64,000 nucleotides of DNA, taken from contig CBDCJO010000002.1 of NCBI GenBank assembly GCA_965217865.1, positions 1,632,001-1,696,000 on the forward strand, written 5' to 3'. A model generated the notes under the pieces. It did no database searches and was not told where the DNA came from. It saw nothing but the letters and a program-made list of their open reading frames with translations. Of the stretch, positions 20,273 through 28,715 are shown piece after piece. Every line of letters starts with the position of its first letter. Position 1 is the stretch's first letter. The position numbers and the translations under genes were made by a program. The stretch is from Candidatus Latescibacterota bacterium (GTDB taxonomy: Bacteria > Latescibacterota > UBA2968 > SICM01).

Positions 20273-21265
20273 GTGGAACTTAACTGGTACTGGGGGGCGG
20301 CCATTCTCGGGTTGGGGGCGTTCTGGATCCAACTGATATTGTCTTTCCGTGCACGGGCAAACAAGATGAAGCCTCAGGGTGAAAAGATCAAGAAAGCTCT
20401 TTCAGAAATGGAGGCGAATACCCAAGAAGCCCGACAGGAAGCCGATGAGACCCGGAAGCGGATCGAAGAGATGGAGAAAGCGTTCGAGGTCGCAGATCAG
20501 AAACGCCTGGATGTGATAGGTAGGCTAGACCGTTATCAGATGGTCCTGATACCGGCCGGGGATTGTCGAATCGGGAGTTCTGACGGGCCGAAACACGAAC
20601 AACCTAACCATCATGTGCATCTCGATGGATTCCTTATCGACCGTTATCCCGTAACGAACGTCCAGTACAAACAATACTTAGACATTACCGGACAAAAGAC
20701 GCCGCCCCATTGGTTTGGGGGCACCTATCCGATAGAACAGGCCAACCACCCTGTTGTCAACGTGGGTTTTCAGGAAGCCCGCGACTTTGCGGAATGGATG
20801 GGGAAACGCCTTCCTACTGAGGCCGAGTGGGAGAAAGCCGCCCGAGGGCCGGACGGGCGGACTTATCCATGGGGGGTTGCTTTCCACAAGGAGCGCCTGA
20901 ATAGTGGGAACGATCCGGGTCAGACTACACCCGTTGATAAATACCGGGATGGAGGAAGCCAATATGGTGTGATGGACATGTGTGGAAATGTGTCGGAATG
21001 GACCGTAGATTGGTACGATGAGGAGTATTACAAGGAATCACCGTCTTCAAACCCGGAAGGACCCGAGACGGGGAAATTCAAAGTCATCAAGGGGGGATTT
21101 TTCGGTGAAACCATCATGGGTGTCAGGGCGGCCTGCCGTGCATTCTATCCACCCGCCAACGGTCGAGACAATCTGGGATTCAGATGCGCCAAAACCCCGG
21201 GCGAGAAACCTCCCAAACCTCAAGATAAAGAGAAATCTTCTTCCCAACCCGAAAAACGTGAATAA
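20273..21265 (+). CDS. SUMF1/EgtB/PvdO (FGE-like) domain protein with N-terminal TM and coiled coil
   Basis: PVTN.QY, HPVVNV, RLPTEAEWEKAARG, DMCGNVSEW, LGFRC. No catalytic FGE cysteine pair. Confidence 0.88.
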   Translation: MELNWYWGAAILGLGAFWIQLILSFRARANKMKPQGEKIKKALSEMEANTQEARQEADETRKRIEEMEKAFEVADQKRLDVIGRLDRYQMVLIPAGDCRIGSSDGPKHEQPNHHVHLDGFLIDRYPVTNVQYKQYLDITGQKTPPHWFGGTYPIEQANHPVVNVGFQEARDFAEWMGKRLPTEAEWEKAARGPDGRTYPWGVAFHKERLNSGNDPGQTTPVDKYRDGGSQYGVMDMCGNVSEWTVDWYDEEYYKESPSSNPEGPETGKFKVIKGGFFGETIMGVRAACRAFYPPANGRDNLGFRCAKTPGEKPPKPQDKEKSSSQPEKRE

Positions 21266-21315
21266 CGATATCGATTATCACCTCGCGAAAGGGATCGGTT
21301 CCTGTTATTTTCGGT

Positions 21316-21420
21316 TTAATCCATGGGGACCCGATCTCGAGCGCTCCCCTTTGCCTTATAGAGTTCCTCGTCGGCAAAACGAAGAAGCTCCTCAGGCGAA
21401 GTAACACCCTCTTCCTCTAG
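21316..21420 (-). pseudogene. C-terminal remnant of a GGDEF (diguanylate cyclase) domain
   Basis: Translates LEEEGVTSPEELLRFADEELYKAKGSARDRVPMD*, matching the GGDEF C-terminal consensus LL..AD.ALY.AK..GRNRV. Cut at the IS end. Confidence 0.7.
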
Positions 21421-22584
21421 TGTTATAACCCAGGAATAACTTGACAAAGTAATGGATTCGTCTTATGGTTCCTTATGCCCTTATCCAAGGAGGAACCGAT
21501 GAAAATGGGACGTCCATTGCAGCCATTGAACCTTAGTGATGAAGTCCGAAGTGAATTGAAGGCGATATCTGGTTCGCGGATCTTACCGCATTCTTTGGTG
21601 CGCCGTGCGAAGATCATACTGATGAGTGATATCGGACTCACGAATCTACAGATAGGCCAGAAGCTGGGACTGTCCTATGCCACGATTGGGAAATGGCGTA
21701 ATCGTTATTGTGCTCAAGGGCTGATGGGGCTTTACGACGAGATGCGTCCTGGAGGTCCACGTTCAATCTCCGACCAGAAGATTGCCAGGCTCATTGGCAA
21801 AACCTTGAAGACAAAGCCAAGGCATGCAACTCACTGGACCTGTCGGTCCATCGGAGCTGAGACTGGGCTCTCCAAGTCCACCGTTCAGCGAGTCTGGAAA
21901 GCCTTCGGACTTCAACCTCATCGACAGAAACACTTCAGACTCTCAAACGATCCCTTCTTTGTAGAGAAGGTCAGGGACGTTGTCGGGCTCTACCTCAACC
22001 CGCCAGACAATGCTATGGTGCTCTGTGTGGACGAGAAAAGCCAGGTCCAAGCATTAGATCGAACGCAACCGATTCTGCCACTGGGTTTGGGTTACGTCGA
22101 AGGCGTAACTCACAACTACATCAGACACGGGACAACGACGCTGTTTGCTGCTCTAGAGATCGCCTCGGGAAAAGTGTTAACACAATGTAAACCGAGACAC
22201 CGTCATCAGGAATTCCTTCAATTCCTAAAGCACATCGAGGCAAACGTCCCGGAGGATCTCGATATTCACCTGGTCTTGGACAACTATGGCACGCACAAGC
22301 ACCCTAAAACCAAACAATGGCTTGCAGCCCGGCCAAGATATCAGGTCCACTATACACCCACTTACGCGTCCTGGCTAAACCAAGTCGAGATCTGGTTCAA
22401 CATCATTACACAAAAGGCAATCCGCCGGGGTTCCTTTCGTAGCGTGAAAGATCTGGTCAATAACATCAAGAAATTCGCCGATCACTACAACTCAAATTCA
22501 AAACCCTTTGTGTGGACTGCCACCGCAGAATCCATCCTCGAAAAGATTAAGCGACTATTTGAACTTATTGGCGGGACACGACAC
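21420..22584 (+). mobile_element. IS630-family insertion sequence
   Basis: Imperfect terminal IRs (GTGTTATAACCCAGGAATAACTT / GTGTCGTGTCCCGCCAATAAGTT), CTAG/TA at both ends, intact transposase. Confidence 0.92.
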
Positions 22585-22587
22585 TAG
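21475..22587 (+). CDS. IS630 transposase
   Basis: HTH, then VDEKSQ, YIRHGT, LDNYGTH, WLNQVEIWF (DDE). Stop codon lies in the right end. Confidence 0.96.
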   Translation: MPLSKEEPMKMGRPLQPLNLSDEVRSELKAISGSRILPHSLVRRAKIILMSDIGLTNLQIGQKLGLSYATIGKWRNRYCAQGLMGLYDEMRPGGPRSISDQKIARLIGKTLKTKPRHATHWTCRSIGAETGLSKSTVQRVWKAFGLQPHRQKHFRLSNDPFFVEKVRDVVGLYLNPPDNAMVLCVDEKSQVQALDRTQPILPLGLGYVEGVTHNYIRHGTTTLFAALEIASGKVLTQCKPRHRHQEFLQFLKHIEANVPEDLDIHLVLDNYGTHKHPKTKQWLAARPRYQVHYTPTYASWLNQVEIWFNIITQKAIRRGSFRSVKDLVNNIKKFADHYNSNSKPFVWTATAESILEKIKRLFELIGGTRH

Positions 22588-22957
22588 CGTAGGCAGTCCA
22601 TGCAGCAGTCTCAGTTACACCGGTTAAATAGCCTCGGATGACCATCTCAACTGGAAATACCGTTAGTTTTTTTCCTACGACTACATTTGGATCTGGAACA
22701 TCAATTATGTGATTTTGGATAATATCTTTTGTGTGTTCAAACCAGAATGCAGATGTTTGAGTTATAACCTGTCCTTTAAATGGAATGTGAGCAAGGCTTC
22801 TATCAAAGGCAGACAGTCTGTCGGTTGATATGAGGAATACTTTACCTTTGTCCTCATAAACATCTCTAACCTTGCCTTTGTATTTCGTTCCTAGTTTTAG
22901 GTTCGTTCCTGTTAGGGTCTGTCCGATTTGTTTTTTGATTATTTCTTCCGCTATCAA
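22585..22957 (-). pseudogene. purC: SAICAR synthetase 5' fragment, truncated by IS630
   Basis: GKVRDVY, STDRLSAFD, IPFKGQV, PVEMVIRGYLTG. TTG start after GGAGG; AT-rich. Confidence 0.88.
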
Positions 22958-23085
22958 TTTTCTTCCTCCAAAAAATTAGTGGTTTATTCAACTTTATAAC
23001 TAGTGATTATACTGCAAAAATGCGATATATCTCCGTCTATTCTGGAAATATACCGAAACAATGTCCAACAGCCTCTTTCCATGTT

Positions 23086-23214
23086 GCCTAACGTTCCGTG
23101 CCCACGAAACCGCCCCCTCCTTCAGGGCGGTTTGGGTCGAGCACTGGCAGTCGGTTTGCGCTGTTGTTCTTTGCAGACCGGATGCCAGGCGCAGCCGTGG
23201 GCACTTTGTTATAT
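23086..23214 (-). other. attC-like recombination site 1 (129 bp, branched palindrome)
   Basis: Minus strand ATATAAC...GTTAGGC. Stems GTGCCCACG/CGTGGGCAC and AAACCGCCC/GGGCGGTTT. Confidence 0.75.
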
Positions 23215-23296
23215 GACGTGCCGCCTGGGTGGTTGTGTGGGCTTGCAGGATGCCAAGCCTCGCGAAACAGACTTTCTTCAAAGAACCTTATGAAAG

Positions 23297-24007
23297 CTAG
23301 CATGCCCTAGCTATCCAGGCTGGAAGAGAGCCCACCAATCGAGTTAAGATGATTCTGGCATTCTCCTCAAAAATCCGAATATTCCCCTCATAAGCTTCCC
23401 CTCCACTGCCACCAACAAGATCTGAAACACCTCGCAAAATTAGACATTTTGTATTGTTGTGAGCTGCTACCCAGGCAATTGCTCCTGACTCCCAATCTCC
23501 CGCAACTGCACCAAACTTTGCCGTCAATTCGGGAATATCTTCCACCATAAGATCACGATCCCCAGAAACCAGAAACGTGCGATTCACTTCTTGAGGATAG
23601 GGTGGCACCAGCCAGGAGAGATCTACTTCAGTTGTGTAATATTCAACCGCGTCCTCGGCGTCCAGCATCTGCTCGATGATGTCATAGACGATTGTCCGTT
23701 CAACCAAGATGATGGTCCCTTTCTCAATCTTCCCTTCAAAACCACCGCAAGTACCAAGATTGACCAAAAGCAAAGGGGACCAACGATCAATAACATATTG
23801 GGTTGATGCTGCTGCTGAGATTTTTCCCCATCCACCTTGAAAGAAGAGAACGGACATAATATCTCCACTGACATCTAAATCAACTGAGAACCACTGCCCA
23901 TAAGGAGAAACAACCTTTTCTGCGTCTGGATATATTTCAGTGATCGCATTCCATTCGACAGTGGCAGAAATGATCACAATGACCTTGGATTCAGATGACT
24001 CATGCAT
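23297..24007 (-). CDS. MTA/SAH nucleosidase-like (nucleoside phosphorylase family), cassette gene
   Basis: GGWGKISAA, NLGTCGG, SGD, DWESGAIA, LRGVSD. Confidence 0.85.
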   Translation of the reverse strand: MHESSESKVIVIISATVEWNAITEIYPDAEKVVSPYGQWFSVDLDVSGDIMSVLFFQGGWGKISAAASTQYVIDRWSPLLLVNLGTCGGFEGKIEKGTIILVERTIVYDIIEQMLDAEDAVEYYTTEVDLSWLVPPYPQEVNRTFLVSGDRDLMVEDIPELTAKFGAVAGDWESGAIAWVAAHNNTKCLILRGVSDLVGGSGGEAYEGNIRIFEENARIILTRLVGSLPAWIARAC

Positions 24008-24054
24008 GTTCAGGTCAAATCCACTCTCAGTATATGTTTCTTTTGCGGCATGTC

Positions 24055-24184
24055 ATATAACGTCCTGCAAGGCTCCCGAAATGGCCACGTCTGCAAAAGG
24101 ATTAATTGTTTCTCAATAAGCAAGAGTGGTAAACTCGTGGCCATTTGGGTCGAGTGTAAGCGAGCCGGGAGCGTGCTGTTATGC
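24055..24184 (-). other. attC-like recombination site 2 (130 bp, branched palindrome)
   Basis: Minus strand GCATAAC...GTTATAT. Stems GCTCCCG/CGGGAGC and AAATGGCCACG/CGTGGCCATTT. Shares TTTGGGTCGAG with site 1. Confidence 0.75.
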
Positions 24185-24343
24185 GAAGCTGGCGCGGCCC
24201 CCTTCACGCGAAGCCTTCAAGGGGGCCAACATACAGCGCACAACATAGGCAATGGTTTTTCTTTTCTTGTTTTGTTACACCCGGCGTCAACTGCAACGGC
24301 TTGATAGGAGAGCGATGGTTTGAATGGAACACGGATCATTCCA

Positions 24344-24898
24344 TTACGCATCAGAAGGTCCCGGTTCCCATCCAGTATTTGCAGCCCACTGATCAGCTCT
24401 CGCGATGATCTCCCAGAAAATGTCGCTCTTGGAATCGGTGTATTTCTCACGCTCGTCTCGATATCGTTGTGCCAGCTCTTTTTTCTCGGACTCGTATTTC
24501 TCACAATCTTGCTTGTGCACCCGCATGTAATCGCGAAATAAGAGTGGAAACTGCTGGTGCCAGCTGCCGAGTTTTCTGACATGGACGTGCGTTCTTTTCA
24601 TCCTCTGGGTCTCACGAAAATAACGCTTTGTCTTCTCGTATTTCTTTCCCTTTCGCCAGTAATATCCCAGTTTCTCGAGAGGAGTTAGAAATAGCTCAAC
24701 TGGCTCAAGACTCTCGACCGAAATCTGGATATCGATAATCGGTTTTGCAGCAAGGCCGGGTATAGAGGTTGACCCGATGTGATCAATCCTCAGTGCAATC
24801 TCACCCAGAGCGCTTCGCATCTTCTTTCCGATCTCCTCAAATTCCTGTGGCCATTGTGGAGTATAAGGATGGATTTCTATGGGCTCAGGGCATATCAT
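24344..24898 (-). CDS. GrpB/UPF0157 family nucleotidyltransferase-fold protein, cassette gene
   Basis: HIGSTSIPGLAAKPIIDI, HVHV, LLFRDY, Y...K. Confidence 0.9.
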   Translation of the reverse strand: MICPEPIEIHPYTPQWPQEFEEIGKKMRSALGEIALRIDHIGSTSIPGLAAKPIIDIQISVESLEPVELFLTPLEKLGYYWRKGKKYEKTKRYFRETQRMKRTHVHVRKLGSWHQQFPLLFRDYMRVHKQDCEKYESEKKELAQRYRDEREKYTDSKSDIFWEIIARADQWAANTGWEPGPSDA

Positions 24899-25012
24899 CT
24901 TGTTGTCTCTTAACTATTGCCTATGCGGAAGAGGCTCAGAATATATCAGTTCGCCGTAGAATAATTCAAGATGGGGTCGTTGGTTGTTGGGTTTTGCCTT
25001 TGCGCCAGTTTT

Positions 25013-25066
25013 GCATAACTTACGGTATTCCCGAACTTCTACGTAGATTCCTTAATTTCGGGATAT
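25013..25066 (-). other. attI-like site downstream of the integrase
   Basis: First cassette starts at GTTATGC (25019 on minus). Preceded by inverted repeat TCCCGAA/TTCGGGA and not by a full attC. Confidence 0.55.
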
Positions 25067-25171
25067 TCCCCGCCCTTCGCAGATACCTCCCCACGAAGAA
25101 GATACCGGTATATGTTCGTGAATGCCTTGCTATAGGAGAAATCGTTTTTAGGATGAACTCACCTTTGACGG

Positions 25172-26279
25172 TTACATTAAACTATCCAGAGGACTCTGAA
25201 TCTTACCGATATCTCGGGTTGTGACCCTGGTGTAGATTTCGGTGGTCTTAGAACTCTTATGTCCTAATAATTCTTGAATATAACGCAAATCCGTTCCCCG
25301 TTCAAGCAAATGAGTAGCGAAGGAATGCCGCAAGGTATGCACCGACACAGTCTTCTCTATTCCTGCCTTCACATATGCCCGTTGGAATATCTTTTGGACC
25401 GAACGCTCGTGGAGGTGCCGCCCTGGACGGAAACCCAGGGAAAAGCCAAAGCCTGGGTTGGTATTTCTTGACATATACTCGTAACGCCTCCAGCGCAACT
25501 CTGGAAAGCATGGTATAACGGCCCTTCCTTCTTTTGCCCTGCCGAATATGGATTAGATTTCGATTGGGATCTATGTCCTCTGACCTTAATCGGACCACCT
25601 CACCCAGACGAAGTCCACCGGAGTATGTCAACAACAAAATCGCCCGGTGTTTAGGGTTCCCGACTGCATCCAGGATTCGAATGACTTCTTCGCGACTCAT
25701 GATATTGGGCAATTTTCGTTCCTTTTTGGGACGAGGAAGATTTTCAACGGGAAATGGATACTTCAAGACTTTATTGTAGAGGAATTTCAATGCGCTCACG
25801 CATTGGTTAACATAGCTGTGTGAAGCACCTTTTTCGAGCAAATCATAAACATATTGTCGAACTTCATCCTCCCCCAGGGACTCGGTATCAATTTCATAAC
25901 ACCGAAAATACCTTTCTGCATGTCCAAGGTAAGATTTTCTCGTCTTTGCTCGGTAGCCTCGAAGCCTCAATTCCTGCGCCATTTTAATTAAATGGCCCAC
26001 TGGCTTCGCTGCTGGGATCCGCGAGAAATCCCCTGGATTGCGGAGCGATCTTTCAACCTGAATCCTCTCGCCCTCGAAAAGAATCAATAAGCTTTCCACA
26101 ATCCCCTCCGTGTGGGGCACAGTCCAACATTTTATGTCTGGATCCCAGCGCCGACCCGGGATGCTCTTAATCTTCAGCACACGGTCCGGGGTATAGGGTA
26201 GGTGAACCTTGAGATATCCATTACCTTGCGAACTGATGTAAATGGGTTCTTGGGATAGCCTGACCTGTTGCTTTTCCAT
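25172..26279 (-). pseudogene. Tyrosine recombinase/integrase (SAM-like N-domain plus catalytic domain), +1 frameshift near 25430-25433
   Basis: GLRLGE, HTLRHSFATHLLE, IQELLGH, TTEIYT split across ORFs 25302-26351 and 25172-25498. ATG at 26279 after AAGGAGG. Confidence 0.9.
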
Positions 26280-26547
26280 TGGACCTCCTTCGCGATGGGT
26301 TTTTGTTGATGAAGGCTTAACAAATCGCGTGCCTGGAGGCCATGGCTGCATTTGGTGCGACTACTCCGTTTATATACAGGTATTAACCGATCTGGGAATT
26401 TGGGAGGAATTCTCCGGTGGTGAACTCGATTTTCATTCAGGGGGTTGTTGGCGGGAATGATTCTTTCAGGGCTTCTTTCGAATCCGCTCCAGACGGTTTT
26501 TCAGCATATACAATACGTCATAATTAATTGCGCACACCGGAAGGGCC

Positions 26548-26828
26548 GTGAAACGTCAGACGGGAAAAGCAGTGGCAGTGGCAGGAAAAGGCAAAGGCAG
26601 AGGTCGGAGGTCAGAGGTCAGGGGAAAAGCAGTAGCAAGAAAGGCAAAGGCATCCCGAGCGTCAGGGGTCAGAGGTCAGAGGCCAGGGAAAAGAAAAACC
26701 GTGAAACGTGATACGGCAAAAAAGGCAGTAGCAGTAGCAGGAAAAGCGAAGGCAGAAGCAAGCAAGACCCTTTCGCCCCTCCCCACCGGAATACAGAATA
26801 CAGAAGAAGACATAAATTCAACTCAGCC
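26548..26828. repeat. Mosaic of short intergenic repeats (GAGGTCA/GGGGTCA, GCAGTR, GTGARAC, CAGAATA)
   Basis: The same motifs recur at about 16900, 40820-41080, 42830-43040, 44310-44400, 45690-45770, 48150-48250, 53960-54090 and 56160-56220. Confidence 0.85.
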
Positions 26829-26899
26829 TGCGAGCCCGTTGACGCGAAACTCTCCGGAAAATATGCGCAATTACTTATGTCGTTAATGAATATTAAAAA

Positions 26900-27029
26900 C
26901 CAGGGCAGCTGACACAAACTTAGGTAGGCGCTCCCTTATGGGATTAAATGGCTATAAGCCTTTGTCCTGACACCCCAGGCTTTCCCAACCTAATACCTGG
27001 TATTTGGACTCGGTGTTCAACTGCCCTGG
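26900..27029. mobile_element. Putative MITE (130 bp)
   Basis: Terminal inverted repeats CCAGGGCAGCTGACAC / GTGTTCAACTGCCCTGG. Confidence 0.5.
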
Positions 27030-27066
27030 CATTTACATTGGAGAGGACTTTGCATCCACCAATTTA

Positions 27067-27195
27067 TTACGGTTTCTTTATATGGCGAATGTTTTTCCTG
27101 CTGGTCGCCTTAAACCCTCTCTTATCAAACTGCTTTTGCTTCCTCTTTCCAACATCACTTGACGTGTGCCGCTTCTCCCTCTTTATGGCTGCCAT
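27067..27195 (-). CDS. Putative 42-aa highly basic small protein
   Basis: ATG preceded by GGAG. MAAIKREKRHTSSDVGKRKQKQFDKRGFKATSRKNIRHIKKP*. Confidence 0.45.
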   Translation of the reverse strand: MAAIKREKRHTSSDVGKRKQKQFDKRGFKATSRKNIRHIKKP

Positions 27196-27349
27196 AACGG
27201 ACTCCATTAGAAAATGGGTGGAAATTGAGTGTGGGCAGAACTTAATTCGATGACGCGAAGTATTCTCTTAGTTATCAGATTCAATGATCCTCTACTAAAG
27301 ATAAGGGTTTAGAGGAAAGGATAAAATAAAAATCCACGGCCATAAAGGC

Positions 27350-27655
27350 CGTGGATCGTGATTCGGGGATCTGGAAACCAGTGGATCAGAGAATCCGGGG
27401 TTCGTGGATCGTGATTCGGGGATCGGGAAGGCCGTGGTTCGTGGATCGTGATTCGGGAAACCAGGGGATCGGAGAATCCGGGGTTCGTGGATCGTGATTC
27501 GGGGTTCGAAAAGGCGACGGACAAGCTTTTTCATACAAGTGGAAAAATTGAATCGTAATACTGATACAGATAAGCGATAACGAGCAGGTGCGAATCACGA
27601 GAAGATTCGGGGATCGGGAAGGCCGTGGTTCATGGATCGTGATTCGTGATTCGGG
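27350..27655. repeat. Direct-repeat cluster CGTGGATCGTGATTCGGG (4 exact copies plus variants)
   Basis: Copies at 27350, 27403, 27440 and 27486. Related motifs at about 37180-37260, 43000-43035 and 56560-56590. Confidence 0.9.
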
Positions 27656-27686
27656 ATACCAGGGAGTCGTGTTCGGCCTTGAATCT

Positions 27687-28715
27687 TCAATACCTCTTTG
27701 CGTATCCCTTTTTCAGAAGCTCCCCGTTTAAAAACCGCCCGTTTCTCAGCGCATCTTCCGCCGCCCCTTTTCCCGGCAGGTAAAACAGGTCCGCCAGATA
27801 CCGGTCGTACTTGTCCGGCTTCGTCGTAGTGACTGCCACAGATGTATTTGCTGATAGCGCTGACGCCACGAATGCCCTGGCCTGCTGACCCTCCCTGGTC
27901 CGAAGTTCGGGCGTGTCGATCCCTCTAAGCCGCACTTTCTGTCGAGTCCAAACCTGGAATCCGCAGTCCACGTCCAGCCATATGGTGTCGCCGTCGATCA
28001 CGCGCTCCACGTACGCCAGGTAGGAGTAAAAGGCTGCCCGCGTATCGCTGACCTCCAGAAGCCTGAAAACCGGTTCGCCGTCACCCGGACCCCGAACCGC
28101 CTCCACGAGCGTGCCTTCTTGGGGATTATCGAGCCGATCCAGCGGCCTTTTTAGAAGGATTCCGAACCCCAGATCCAGGCGGAGGCCCCTTCCCCCCGGA
28201 GTTTCTATCAGTCGGTAGGTCCAGGGCTGTCCCCGCTTGGCCCGGAGTCGTGCCACCGGACTCTGTTGCGGTTGCTTAAGGCTCTTTGGGGGGAGAGAAC
28301 AAGCGTGGATCTGGGCGGCCAGTTCCCGGGTGCTCCAACCGTATCTATCTGCTTTCTGAGCAAGGAGATACCGTTCGTCATCAGACGGCAGTTTTATCAG
28401 TCTTCGGTAGTGCGTCCAGGTCAATTTTGAACGCGCGTGCAGAATTGGAAACGACCGGTGAAACCGAAGAGATTCATACAAAATCCTCTCGCTGATCCCC
28501 ACGTCCTTCGCCATCCTGGCAATCACCTGATCTCCGTAACCAGCCTTGGCCTTGATGGCAAGCAAATGCGCCTGGATCAATCCCCCAACCTCCCAGTAGG
28601 TCCTGACCTTTTCCCGTTCCACTGCCTGACGAGCCCGTTCCTTCCCCGCACTTAGAACCTTTGCGACTTCGCCGCGTAAGGCACTGTAGGTATTTACGAT
28701 AGGGAAATTAGGCAT
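27687..28715 (-). CDS. DUF1016 N-terminal (YhcG-like) domain fused to a thermonuclease (SNase) domain
   Basis: YWEVG, YGDQVI, LTWTHY, WSTREL in the N-terminus; VIDGDT, VRLRGIDTPE, DKYDRYLA, LLKKGYA in the C-terminus. Confidence 0.85.
   Translation of the reverse strand: MPNFPIVNTYSALRGEVAKVLSAGKERARQAVEREKVRTYWEVGGLIQAHLLAIKAKAGYGDQVIARMAKDVGISERILYESLRFHRSFPILHARSKLTWTHYRRLIKLPSDDERYLLAQKADRYGWSTRELAAQIHACSLPPKSLKQPQQSPVARLRAKRGQPWTYRLIETPGGRGLRLDLGFGILLKRPLDRLDNPQEGTLVEAVRGPGDGEPVFRLLEVSDTRAAFYSYLAYVERVIDGDTIWLDVDCGFQVWTRQKVRLRGIDTPELRTREGQQARAFVASALSANTSVAVTTTKPDKYDRYLADLFYLPGKGAAEDALRNGRFLNGELLKKGYAKRY

Follow-up and report, generated by a model that had tools for sequence, protein, structure and literature searches.

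Branched attC-like sites and an insertion-less tyrosine recombinase in a likely gene cassette array of a Candidatus Latescibacterota bacterium

Integron chemistry is thought to need an insertion specific to the integrase IntI together with extrahelical bases in the folded attC site, and it is this insertion that grips the extrahelical G. IntI is defined, in the accessible text of PMC9668308, as a tyrosine recombinase with an IntI-specific additional domain. The extrahelical bases of the VCR site are G16, T20 and T24, the first being the main strand determinant (accessible part of PMC2727003), and the branched tips of long attC sites stand at the end of a longer stem (PMC2727003 and PMC5027507, in the portions available). 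The first-pass annotation of the DNA studied here had taken canonical attC sites to be unbranched; this was too strong, since the available part of PMC2727003 describes a branched terminal structure for VCR.

The closest described system is rAID-1 of Bacteroidales, which is defined, in the available portions of its descriptions (bioRxiv 10.1101/471110; PMC12247911), by a Bacteroidales host, low-GC immunity genes and more than 44% identity to BF9343_RS08045. Judged from those portions, it shares with the present locus an XerD-like recombinase placed 5' of two or more short co-directional genes, a conserved motif directly behind that recombinase, and repeated integron-like intergenic motifs. The same portions, which were compared by text, describe no fold, crossover point or missing insertion, and the motif figure of that work (fig. 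S4) may bear on novelty. The cargo differs: in the available text that of rAID-1 has a GC content of 41% or lower and serves immunity, whereas the region analysed here is about 48% GC and carries GrpB and nucleosidase-like genes. Bacteroidota-like loci in our comparison held mostly unbranched sites. As in XerC/XerD-dif and archaeal XerA, the enzyme has an insertion-less catalytic domain (about 30-40% identity), but the sites are not the 28-bp dif-like duplexes of XerC/XerD. In the literature covered, which excluded most subscription journals, no description of branched sites together with an insertion-less enzyme was found.

In the window, that is, the whole 64,000-nt stretch of DNA analysed here, the minus strand holds a tyrosine recombinase gene (26279-25172) and, behind it, a conserved stretch of 165 nt with GTTA at its end; next come a GrpB-family gene followed by site 2, then a nucleosidase-like gene followed by site 1, and lastly a purC fragment and an IS630 element. 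Given this gene order, the plus strand corresponds to what is called the bottom strand in integrons. The recombinase gene (25172-26279, minus strand), which is co-directional with the cassettes and encodes no IntI insertion, is a pseudogene frameshifted near 25430-25440, a place covered gap-free by contigs of two public runs, either of which may be the source sample. Because the local enzyme is a pseudogene, the window array is probably frozen and the local copy inactive, as far as sequence can tell. The first cassette gene (24344-24898, minus strand) encodes a GrpB-family protein of 184 aa, and its cassette ends (24178-24195 and 25002-25019) are inverted repeats; the second (23297-24007, minus strand) encodes a nucleoside phosphorylase or MTA-SAH nucleosidase-like protein of 236 aa, with near-perfect inverted repeats at the cassette ends (23208-23224 and 24045-24061). 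Both sites sit at the 3' ends of the cassette genes, with the exchange point at AAC/GTT, and they likely close two gene cassettes of an integron-like array.

Between the recombinase and the first cassette lies the attI-like stretch (25016-25180, minus strand), of which nhmmer listed 11 copies in the own genome (as well as 4 rows like site 1 and 8 like site 2). Ten of the 11 are strong, and all start at TAAC (25016-25019 in the window), where the similarity always ends and the sequence beyond differs. A conserved stretch ending in GTT beside a recombinase gene, followed by different first cassettes, is what is expected of attI, although the function is putative. Together with a 3' recombinase stub, the stretch is scattered over ten places in the genome, each with a different first cassette: the window and positions 1789434, 1982594, 1990092, 2034713, 3496223, 3803316, 4235050, 4801583 and 4999472 of contig C2. 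No intact copy of the enzyme was found in this genome.

Several further features were seen around the array. The IS630 element adjoins a 5' purC fragment just past site 1 (21475-22957), and the array stops there. Upstream of the recombinase, a fragment like the long arm of one site subtype (27296-27343) was not scored by site model R1 and is directly followed by a region of 37/83-bp tandem repeats (27344-27515). The leader (24900-25019) and the trailer (24185-24340) of the GrpB cassette, both non-coding, recur around other genes in loci L061, L048 and L114 and at two contig joints; such cassettes look built on a shared chassis, which may bear on cassette formation.

Site 1 (23086-23214, 129 nt) and site 2 (24055-24184, 130 nt), both on the plus strand, were delimited by sequence parse and fold, their lengths being measured from the RYYYAAC box (R') to the GTTRRRY box (R''); as in canonical attC, these boxes flank a hairpin. 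Site 1 consists of the R' box 23086-23092, an outer stem P1 (23098-23106 with 23196-23204), a short P2 arm (23107-23133), a long side arm P3 (23134-23195) and the R'' box 23208-23214; at its junction core, GGGTCGAG (23134-23141) stands opposite GCGCAGC (23189-23195) with a 47-nt hairpin between. In site 2 the R' box lies at 24055-24061, P1 at 24072-24078 with 24166-24172, a long P2 arm at 24079-24146, a short side arm P3 at 24147-24165 and the R'' box at 24178-24184; in its side arm, GGGTCGAG stands opposite GCGAGC, and two unpaired nucleotides, one unpaired pyrimidine, tandem G.A/A.G pairs and a small loop are predicted.

The skeleton that the first-pass annotation had ascribed to both sites is present, with TAACGT at 23089 and 24058 and GTTAT at 23208 and 24178, as is the identical 11-mer, TTTGGGTCGAG, at 23131 and 24144. 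An 11-mer common to two 130-nt segments has a chance of about 0.003, and this one occurs 10 times in the genome against 3.2 expected, seven of the copies lying inside such sites. The 12-nt spacing from CG to GTT likewise holds for the two window sites and recurs in 19 of the 20 sites that were parsed. With DNA parameters, the plus strands of sites 1 and 2 fold, as had been proposed, into three-way junctions of -34.2 and -26.0 kcal/mol (z of -5.6 and -4.4), and the minus strands reach -31.0 and -21.6 kcal/mol, making the plus strand stabler by 3-4 kcal/mol. The nearly equal lengths with the long arm switching sides are real for these two sites (129 versus 130 nt) but incidental, and equal length as a ruler was rejected, since 59 sites range over 76-166 nt. 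Rfam covariance models gave four weak matches in 21000-28000, none near its gathering score. A hammerhead reading of CGAAA was also rejected; no CUGANGA-like core was seen by eye, and Rfam returned no match.

Covariation of the stems, claimed at first from two sites, extends to alignment A1 of 17 sites, in which 90.7% of cells were paired versus 77.1% after shuffling, 16 of 29 pairs change on both sides, and the covariation score was 0.407 versus 0.150 shuffled (at most 0.118 in slid registers); the sequences are related and were partly picked for pairing, and kinship inflates the shuffle control, so these figures are not probabilities. All seven variable pairs of P1 covary. RNAalifold, unaided, returned the same three-way junction from 14 short-arm sites. 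When 20 sites of the window subtype were parsed, P1 closed with C-G and G-C, P2 adjoined it without a gap and began with AA/TT, and two unpaired bases preceded the side arm. The latter consists of a covarying G-C/A-T pair, one unpaired pyrimidine, C-G, invariant G.A and A.G, G-C (once A-T), C-G and a small loop, with a register that is ambiguous as to which of two pyrimidines is unpaired. The junction letters CG-AA..TT and the G.A core were invariant in 20/20 sites, so covariation says nothing on the G.A core. P1 was ungapped in the 20 parsed sites and in both window sites, lacking the extrahelical base that marks canonical attC. Tandem sheared G.A pairs, like GNA triloops, form very stable structures in DNA, and coaxial stacking is seen in junctions that have two unpaired bases. 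The purine-rich side arm likely forms sheared G.A pairs and GNA loops.

To judge how general this plan is, 59 sites were gathered by AAC, GTTA and the outer stem only; 22 of them came from loci found with the side-arm pattern, and an unbranched 55-nt offset site of the own genome (C2:800315), which ends in GTTG, stands outside the set. Outer-stem pairing stopped at +12 (39 sites) or +13 (20 sites) and never beyond, that is, 12-13 nt from GTT, where pairing to +12 was itself a selection criterion. A second stem of at least 6 bp was present in 54/59 sites versus 16% of shuffled interiors (15/18 from the own genome, 18/19 from other relatives, and 21/22 from the loci found by side-arm pattern). 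On the bottom strand the purine-pair motif occurred in 46 of 56 side arms (shuffled mean, 6), on the top strand in none; among the 18 own-genome sites, only 9 had it. As in canonical attC, the bottom strand was the stabler one, in 52/59 sites and by a mean of -2.9 kcal/mol; the canonical value is -2.12 in the available part of PMC5027507. The R' arm was about 2-5 nt longer (offset of 2 in 7 sites, 3 in 27, 4 in 24 and 7 in 1), which differs from the canonical 5-6-nt unpaired central spacer per arm. Mismatches in P1 were 20 G.T versus 5 A.C. Side arms measured 16-62 nt and were widely variable in sequence, and the arrays of relatives held many site types on the same plan, some of them four-way. 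G-tract side arms without a predicted hairpin were seen at C2:3784521, 3800691, 4231441 and 345469 and at L114:7495-7631; one of six checked fits a four-G3-tract quadruplex pattern. Twelve offset-register sites turned up in 82 distant loci from phages and plasmids; just two of them scored as branched. Insertion-less enzymes can thus apparently work without a side arm, and the missing extrahelical base would be general for such enzymes, the branch being a sub-lineage trait.

A search for further instances in this genome and its relatives was successful. A covariance model built from the 17 sites gave at least 30 matches at E 0.1 in the own genome, with 150 of 1228 candidates scored, and matched 21/61 phylum genomes. 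The own genome held 19 perfect offset-register sites versus 0 and 0 in two shuffles of C2, and 1 canonical-register site versus 1 and 1. In GTDB genomes, a right-half pattern matched 22 times across 21 stretches; these matches were read manually as 12 complete sites, 2 without a left arm, 1 degenerate site, 6 half-sites and 1 chance match. The long-side-arm type was seen only in four own-genome copies, three of them damaged, and in one copy in L038; a scan of metagenome contigs with its pattern returned 10 stretches, none with the skeleton, which were taken as chance, and a scan of viral contigs for the short-side-arm type returned none.

Sequence exchange falls on AAC/GTT, which speaks against the possibility, raised at the outset, that the repeats are unrelated to cassette boundaries. 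A 1.2-kb unit shared by L022 and L115 at 99.7% identity has TAACGTT at its end, after which the sites differ. In two genome pairs the similarity of recombinase plus attI-like stretch stops at TAAC, and the other block ends in that comparison are off sites. Public contigs from two runs depart from the window sequence right after 25019 and continue into another site-like sequence. In the same contigs, which show presence only, no joint at the site cores indicated excision of a window cassette; two joints skip 736-777 nt with unknown letters between. Moreover, both window cassettes have complementary ends, with 13 of 17 positions beyond GTT pairing. Over 41 neighbouring pairs, some of which span undetected sites, pairing of cassette ends at positions 12-17 was 0.59 for cognate versus 0.33 for non-cognate ends, and over 8 canonical pairs it was 0.23 versus 0.26. 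At positions 8-11, G.T pairs raise the paired fraction to 0.77 on the bottom strand, against 0.46 on the top strand.

Site type followed enzyme type. Loci (110) were classified by a strict 9-of-9 rule, at which most had no site at all. The 42 IntI-only loci gave 16 canonical-register sites and 1 offset site, and the 53 insertion-less loci gave 0 canonical and 17 offset sites, the canonical controls being few (16 sites, 8 cassettes); two offset sites came from 2 mixed loci and two more from 13 unclassified loci. Site model R1 matched 0/16 canonical-IntI stretches and 11/25 insertion-less loci, one match being a training sequence. In many genomes the attI-like stretch is found together with the 3' end of the insertion-less gene. 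We consider it highly probable that window-type sites are the cassette sites of the insertion-less enzyme family.

The window recombinase matched TIGR02249 at 3-180 and 235-315 only, without the IntI-specific additional domain. When intact homologues and three canonical IntI were aligned, two segments (about 31 and 10 residues) were absent from every non-IntI row spanning the region, the intact homologues included. Canonical integrons thus differ both in these two insertions and in orientation, the enzyme here pointing toward the array. By sequence and by fold, the window enzyme matches VchIntIA best. Among 12 matches in the own genome no IntI was over cut-off; in the phylum, IntI was over cut-off in 17/168 genomes and the insertion-less enzyme was present in 32/168. 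The family counts 3527 proteins at E 1e-60 among 7999 scored. In a tree of 32 rows, rooted at its midpoint only, 8 of 9 enzymes of branched arrays cluster with modest support (88/92), IntI is separate (100/100), and the own genome's separate Xer-like genes fall on another branch than the array recombinase. These insertion-less enzymes make up an as yet undescribed sister group of enzymes. Recombinases related to them, insertion-less as well and about 42% identical, also occur in another setting, coupled to IS91-family transposases, in L133 and plasmid hits H2-H8.

The N-terminal domain of the recombinase (about 70 aa) is weakly HARP-like. Pfam HARP matched it at E 0.0016, below cut-off in the window copy, and over cut-off in homologue P0089; a fold search returned 4o66 as a weak match (E 0.28), and with a low-confidence model UvsW and MotA came up amid unrelated entries, at no more than Z 3.8-4.3. 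We rejected this domain as a required junction reader, because it is missing from some branched-site enzymes (L025, L121).

Like canonical attC (VCR/VchIntIA, PDB 2a3v; attCaadA7/IntI1), the sites have both boxes, a G after AAC, a gene-site-gene array, exchange at AAC/GTT and GAA-type loops. They differ in having no extrahelical G in the L stem, in carrying the extra bases on the R' arm (canonical, R'' arm), in branching at +12/+13 rather than after a 31-34 nt stem, and in cassette ends that pair over about 17 nt rather than 7. If R'' is assumed to be counted as 1-7, G16, T20 and T24 of VCR fall at +9, +13 and +17; the branch would then stand at the T20 position, and an equivalent of G16 is missing. 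The proposal of a distinct structured site therefore holds for the architecture of these attC-like sites at cassette boundaries, but not for branching itself, which VCR and other long attC already show. What is distinctive is a branch fixed 12-13 nt from GTT, in the region expected to be covered by a recombinase, with the extrahelical G lost and the bulge on the opposite arm. As the system has neither the IntI domain nor the extrahelical bases, we do not file it as an integron, though it is integron-like in its working.

At the sequence level, boundaries in these arrays fall at AAC/GTT, the stems covary, the outer stem is free of extrahelical bases and gives way to a branch 12-13 nt from GTT, the R' arm carries 2-5 additional nt, and the ends of a cassette are complementary over about 17 nt. 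Our preferred reading, to which we give a probability of roughly 0.6, is an integron-like array behind an insertion-less recombinase in which the bottom-strand fold recombines and the purine-rich side arm replaces the extrahelical G as strand mark. By analogy with IntI, the sites would recombine as a folded single bottom strand at AA/C. In a cassette circle, the two ends would pair to form a long Xer-like arm outside the cut, complete only in the circle. P1 stacked on P2 would give the partner subunit a single continuous helix, and the side arm, with its G.A pairs, GNA loops and G.T pairs on the bottom strand only, would make that strand the substrate. The cassette may then enter beside the recombinase through the exchange of one strand at AA/C with an attI-like site that is double-stranded. 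That the window repeats are a variant of the integron cassette site, real as a structure, is well supported; that the side arm selects the strand, we infer.

The same integron-like system could also run with a side arm that the enzyme does not read, a lineage-specific terminal structure aiding stability or extrusion, strand choice coming from the R'-arm bulge and the G.T bias. Arm sequences that vary widely over 16-62 nt would suit this, as would the distant insertion-less arrays, which are mostly plain hairpins in the same offset register, and the clustering of branched-array enzymes (8/9 rows) means that shared ancestry can explain a shared branch; in the accessible part of PMC5027507, moreover, unpaired tips and nucleotide skew act indirectly, via folding stability. 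However, the branch point stays at +12/+13 in 59/59 sites while arm lengths and stem sequences vary, and the CG-AA..TT letters with the G.A core are invariant in 20/20 parsed sites of the subtype. We regard a purely stabilising arm as unlikely, while giving it real weight.

Action on duplex DNA, in which the inverted repeats would serve as ordinary binding arms and the fold would be incidental, would accord with an enzyme that is insertion-less like the double-strand recombinases of XerA/XerC type. It is very improbable in view of stem sequences that change freely while pairing is kept, a box-to-box distance of 76-166 nt, and mismatches that favour G.T on one strand (at positions 8-11 and in P1 alike). 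A slimmer chance still attaches to ordinary attC sites with a branched tip, moved in trans by a canonical IntI, with the neighbouring Xer-like gene a bystander. The G after AAC in all 59 sites (a selection criterion), both boxes, the canonical-like bottom-strand bias, the branched VCR tip (PMC2727003, available part), the phylum genomes with IntI and the one canonical-register site of the own genome would suit it; against it stand the lack of an extrahelical base at +9, the R'-ward spacer asymmetry, a branch after about 12 bp instead of 31-34, the absence of IntI from the own genome's matches, the correspondence of site type with enzyme type, and an attI-like stretch tied to the insertion-less gene in many genomes. 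Least probable of all, and already largely refuted, is the view that the repeats act as RNA (a terminator, an mRNA stabiliser or a ribozyme) or are dispersed palindromes of REP/MITE type that have nothing to do with cassette ends. Although about 30 copies are scattered over the genome, both strands fold well as RNA and CUUCGG-type loops occur 35 times on the transcribed strand, Rfam gave no match near a gathering score, 22900-26600 contains no terminator-like site, the non-standard pairs that are conserved belong to the non-transcribed strand, the loops have the geometry of a DNA triloop alone in 33 cases, of an RNA UNCG loop alone in 12 and of both in 3, and exchange points fall on AAC/GTT.

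Returning to the integron-like array with a strand-marking side arm, its IntI insertion and extrahelical bases are missing together while another strand-specific structure stands at a fixed place, which makes it a test case for Xer-like single-strand recombination, strand choice and the origin of integrons. Tentatively, one could go further and see here a second kind of integron beside the IntI clade, in which Xer-like insertion-less enzymes use a sheared-G.A side arm (perhaps a G-quadruplex in some) at a fixed three- or four-way junction to select the strand, and in which the long, self-complementary ends of the cassettes favour insertion of circles. If true, a tyrosine recombinase that reads a branched, non-Watson-Crick DNA fold would be on record from nature for the first time, and the system would serve as a living model of the stage that preceded the evolution of IntI. 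Such an enzyme, a second structure-specific recombinase, would be useful as a tool too. Since the enzyme family is large and the IntI domain profile misses insertion-less enzymes, many cassette arrays may be uncounted.

Reduced forms of the sites were also seen. Half-sites, reduced to the side arm, the 12-nt arm and GTTA and preceded by an A-run, occur in archaeal and small-genome records (L031, L032, L033, L037, L040 and L041); two of these half-sites are close to minimal insertion-less recombinases. In L035 (3615-4164), three branched sites stand 230 nt apart with no gene between, delimiting near-identical ORF-less cassettes.

The sites are themselves targets of a mobile element. A 1.9-kb IS110-family element (DEDD_Tnp_IS110), which has an extended non-coding part at its 3' side, is inserted directly behind TAAC, at the end of the sites that bears the crossover point; copies lie, for example, on C2 at 199954-201860, 1987361, 3240551, 4979665 and 5005141. 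IS1111-attC elements (ISKpn4, ISPst6) likewise target one end of attC, as cited in the accessible part of PMC11187229; the element of this genome targets the R' end and, unlike them, a branched offset-register site. Nine of 10 left ends follow TAAC, and five of six complete copies, when removed by eye, rebuild a site.
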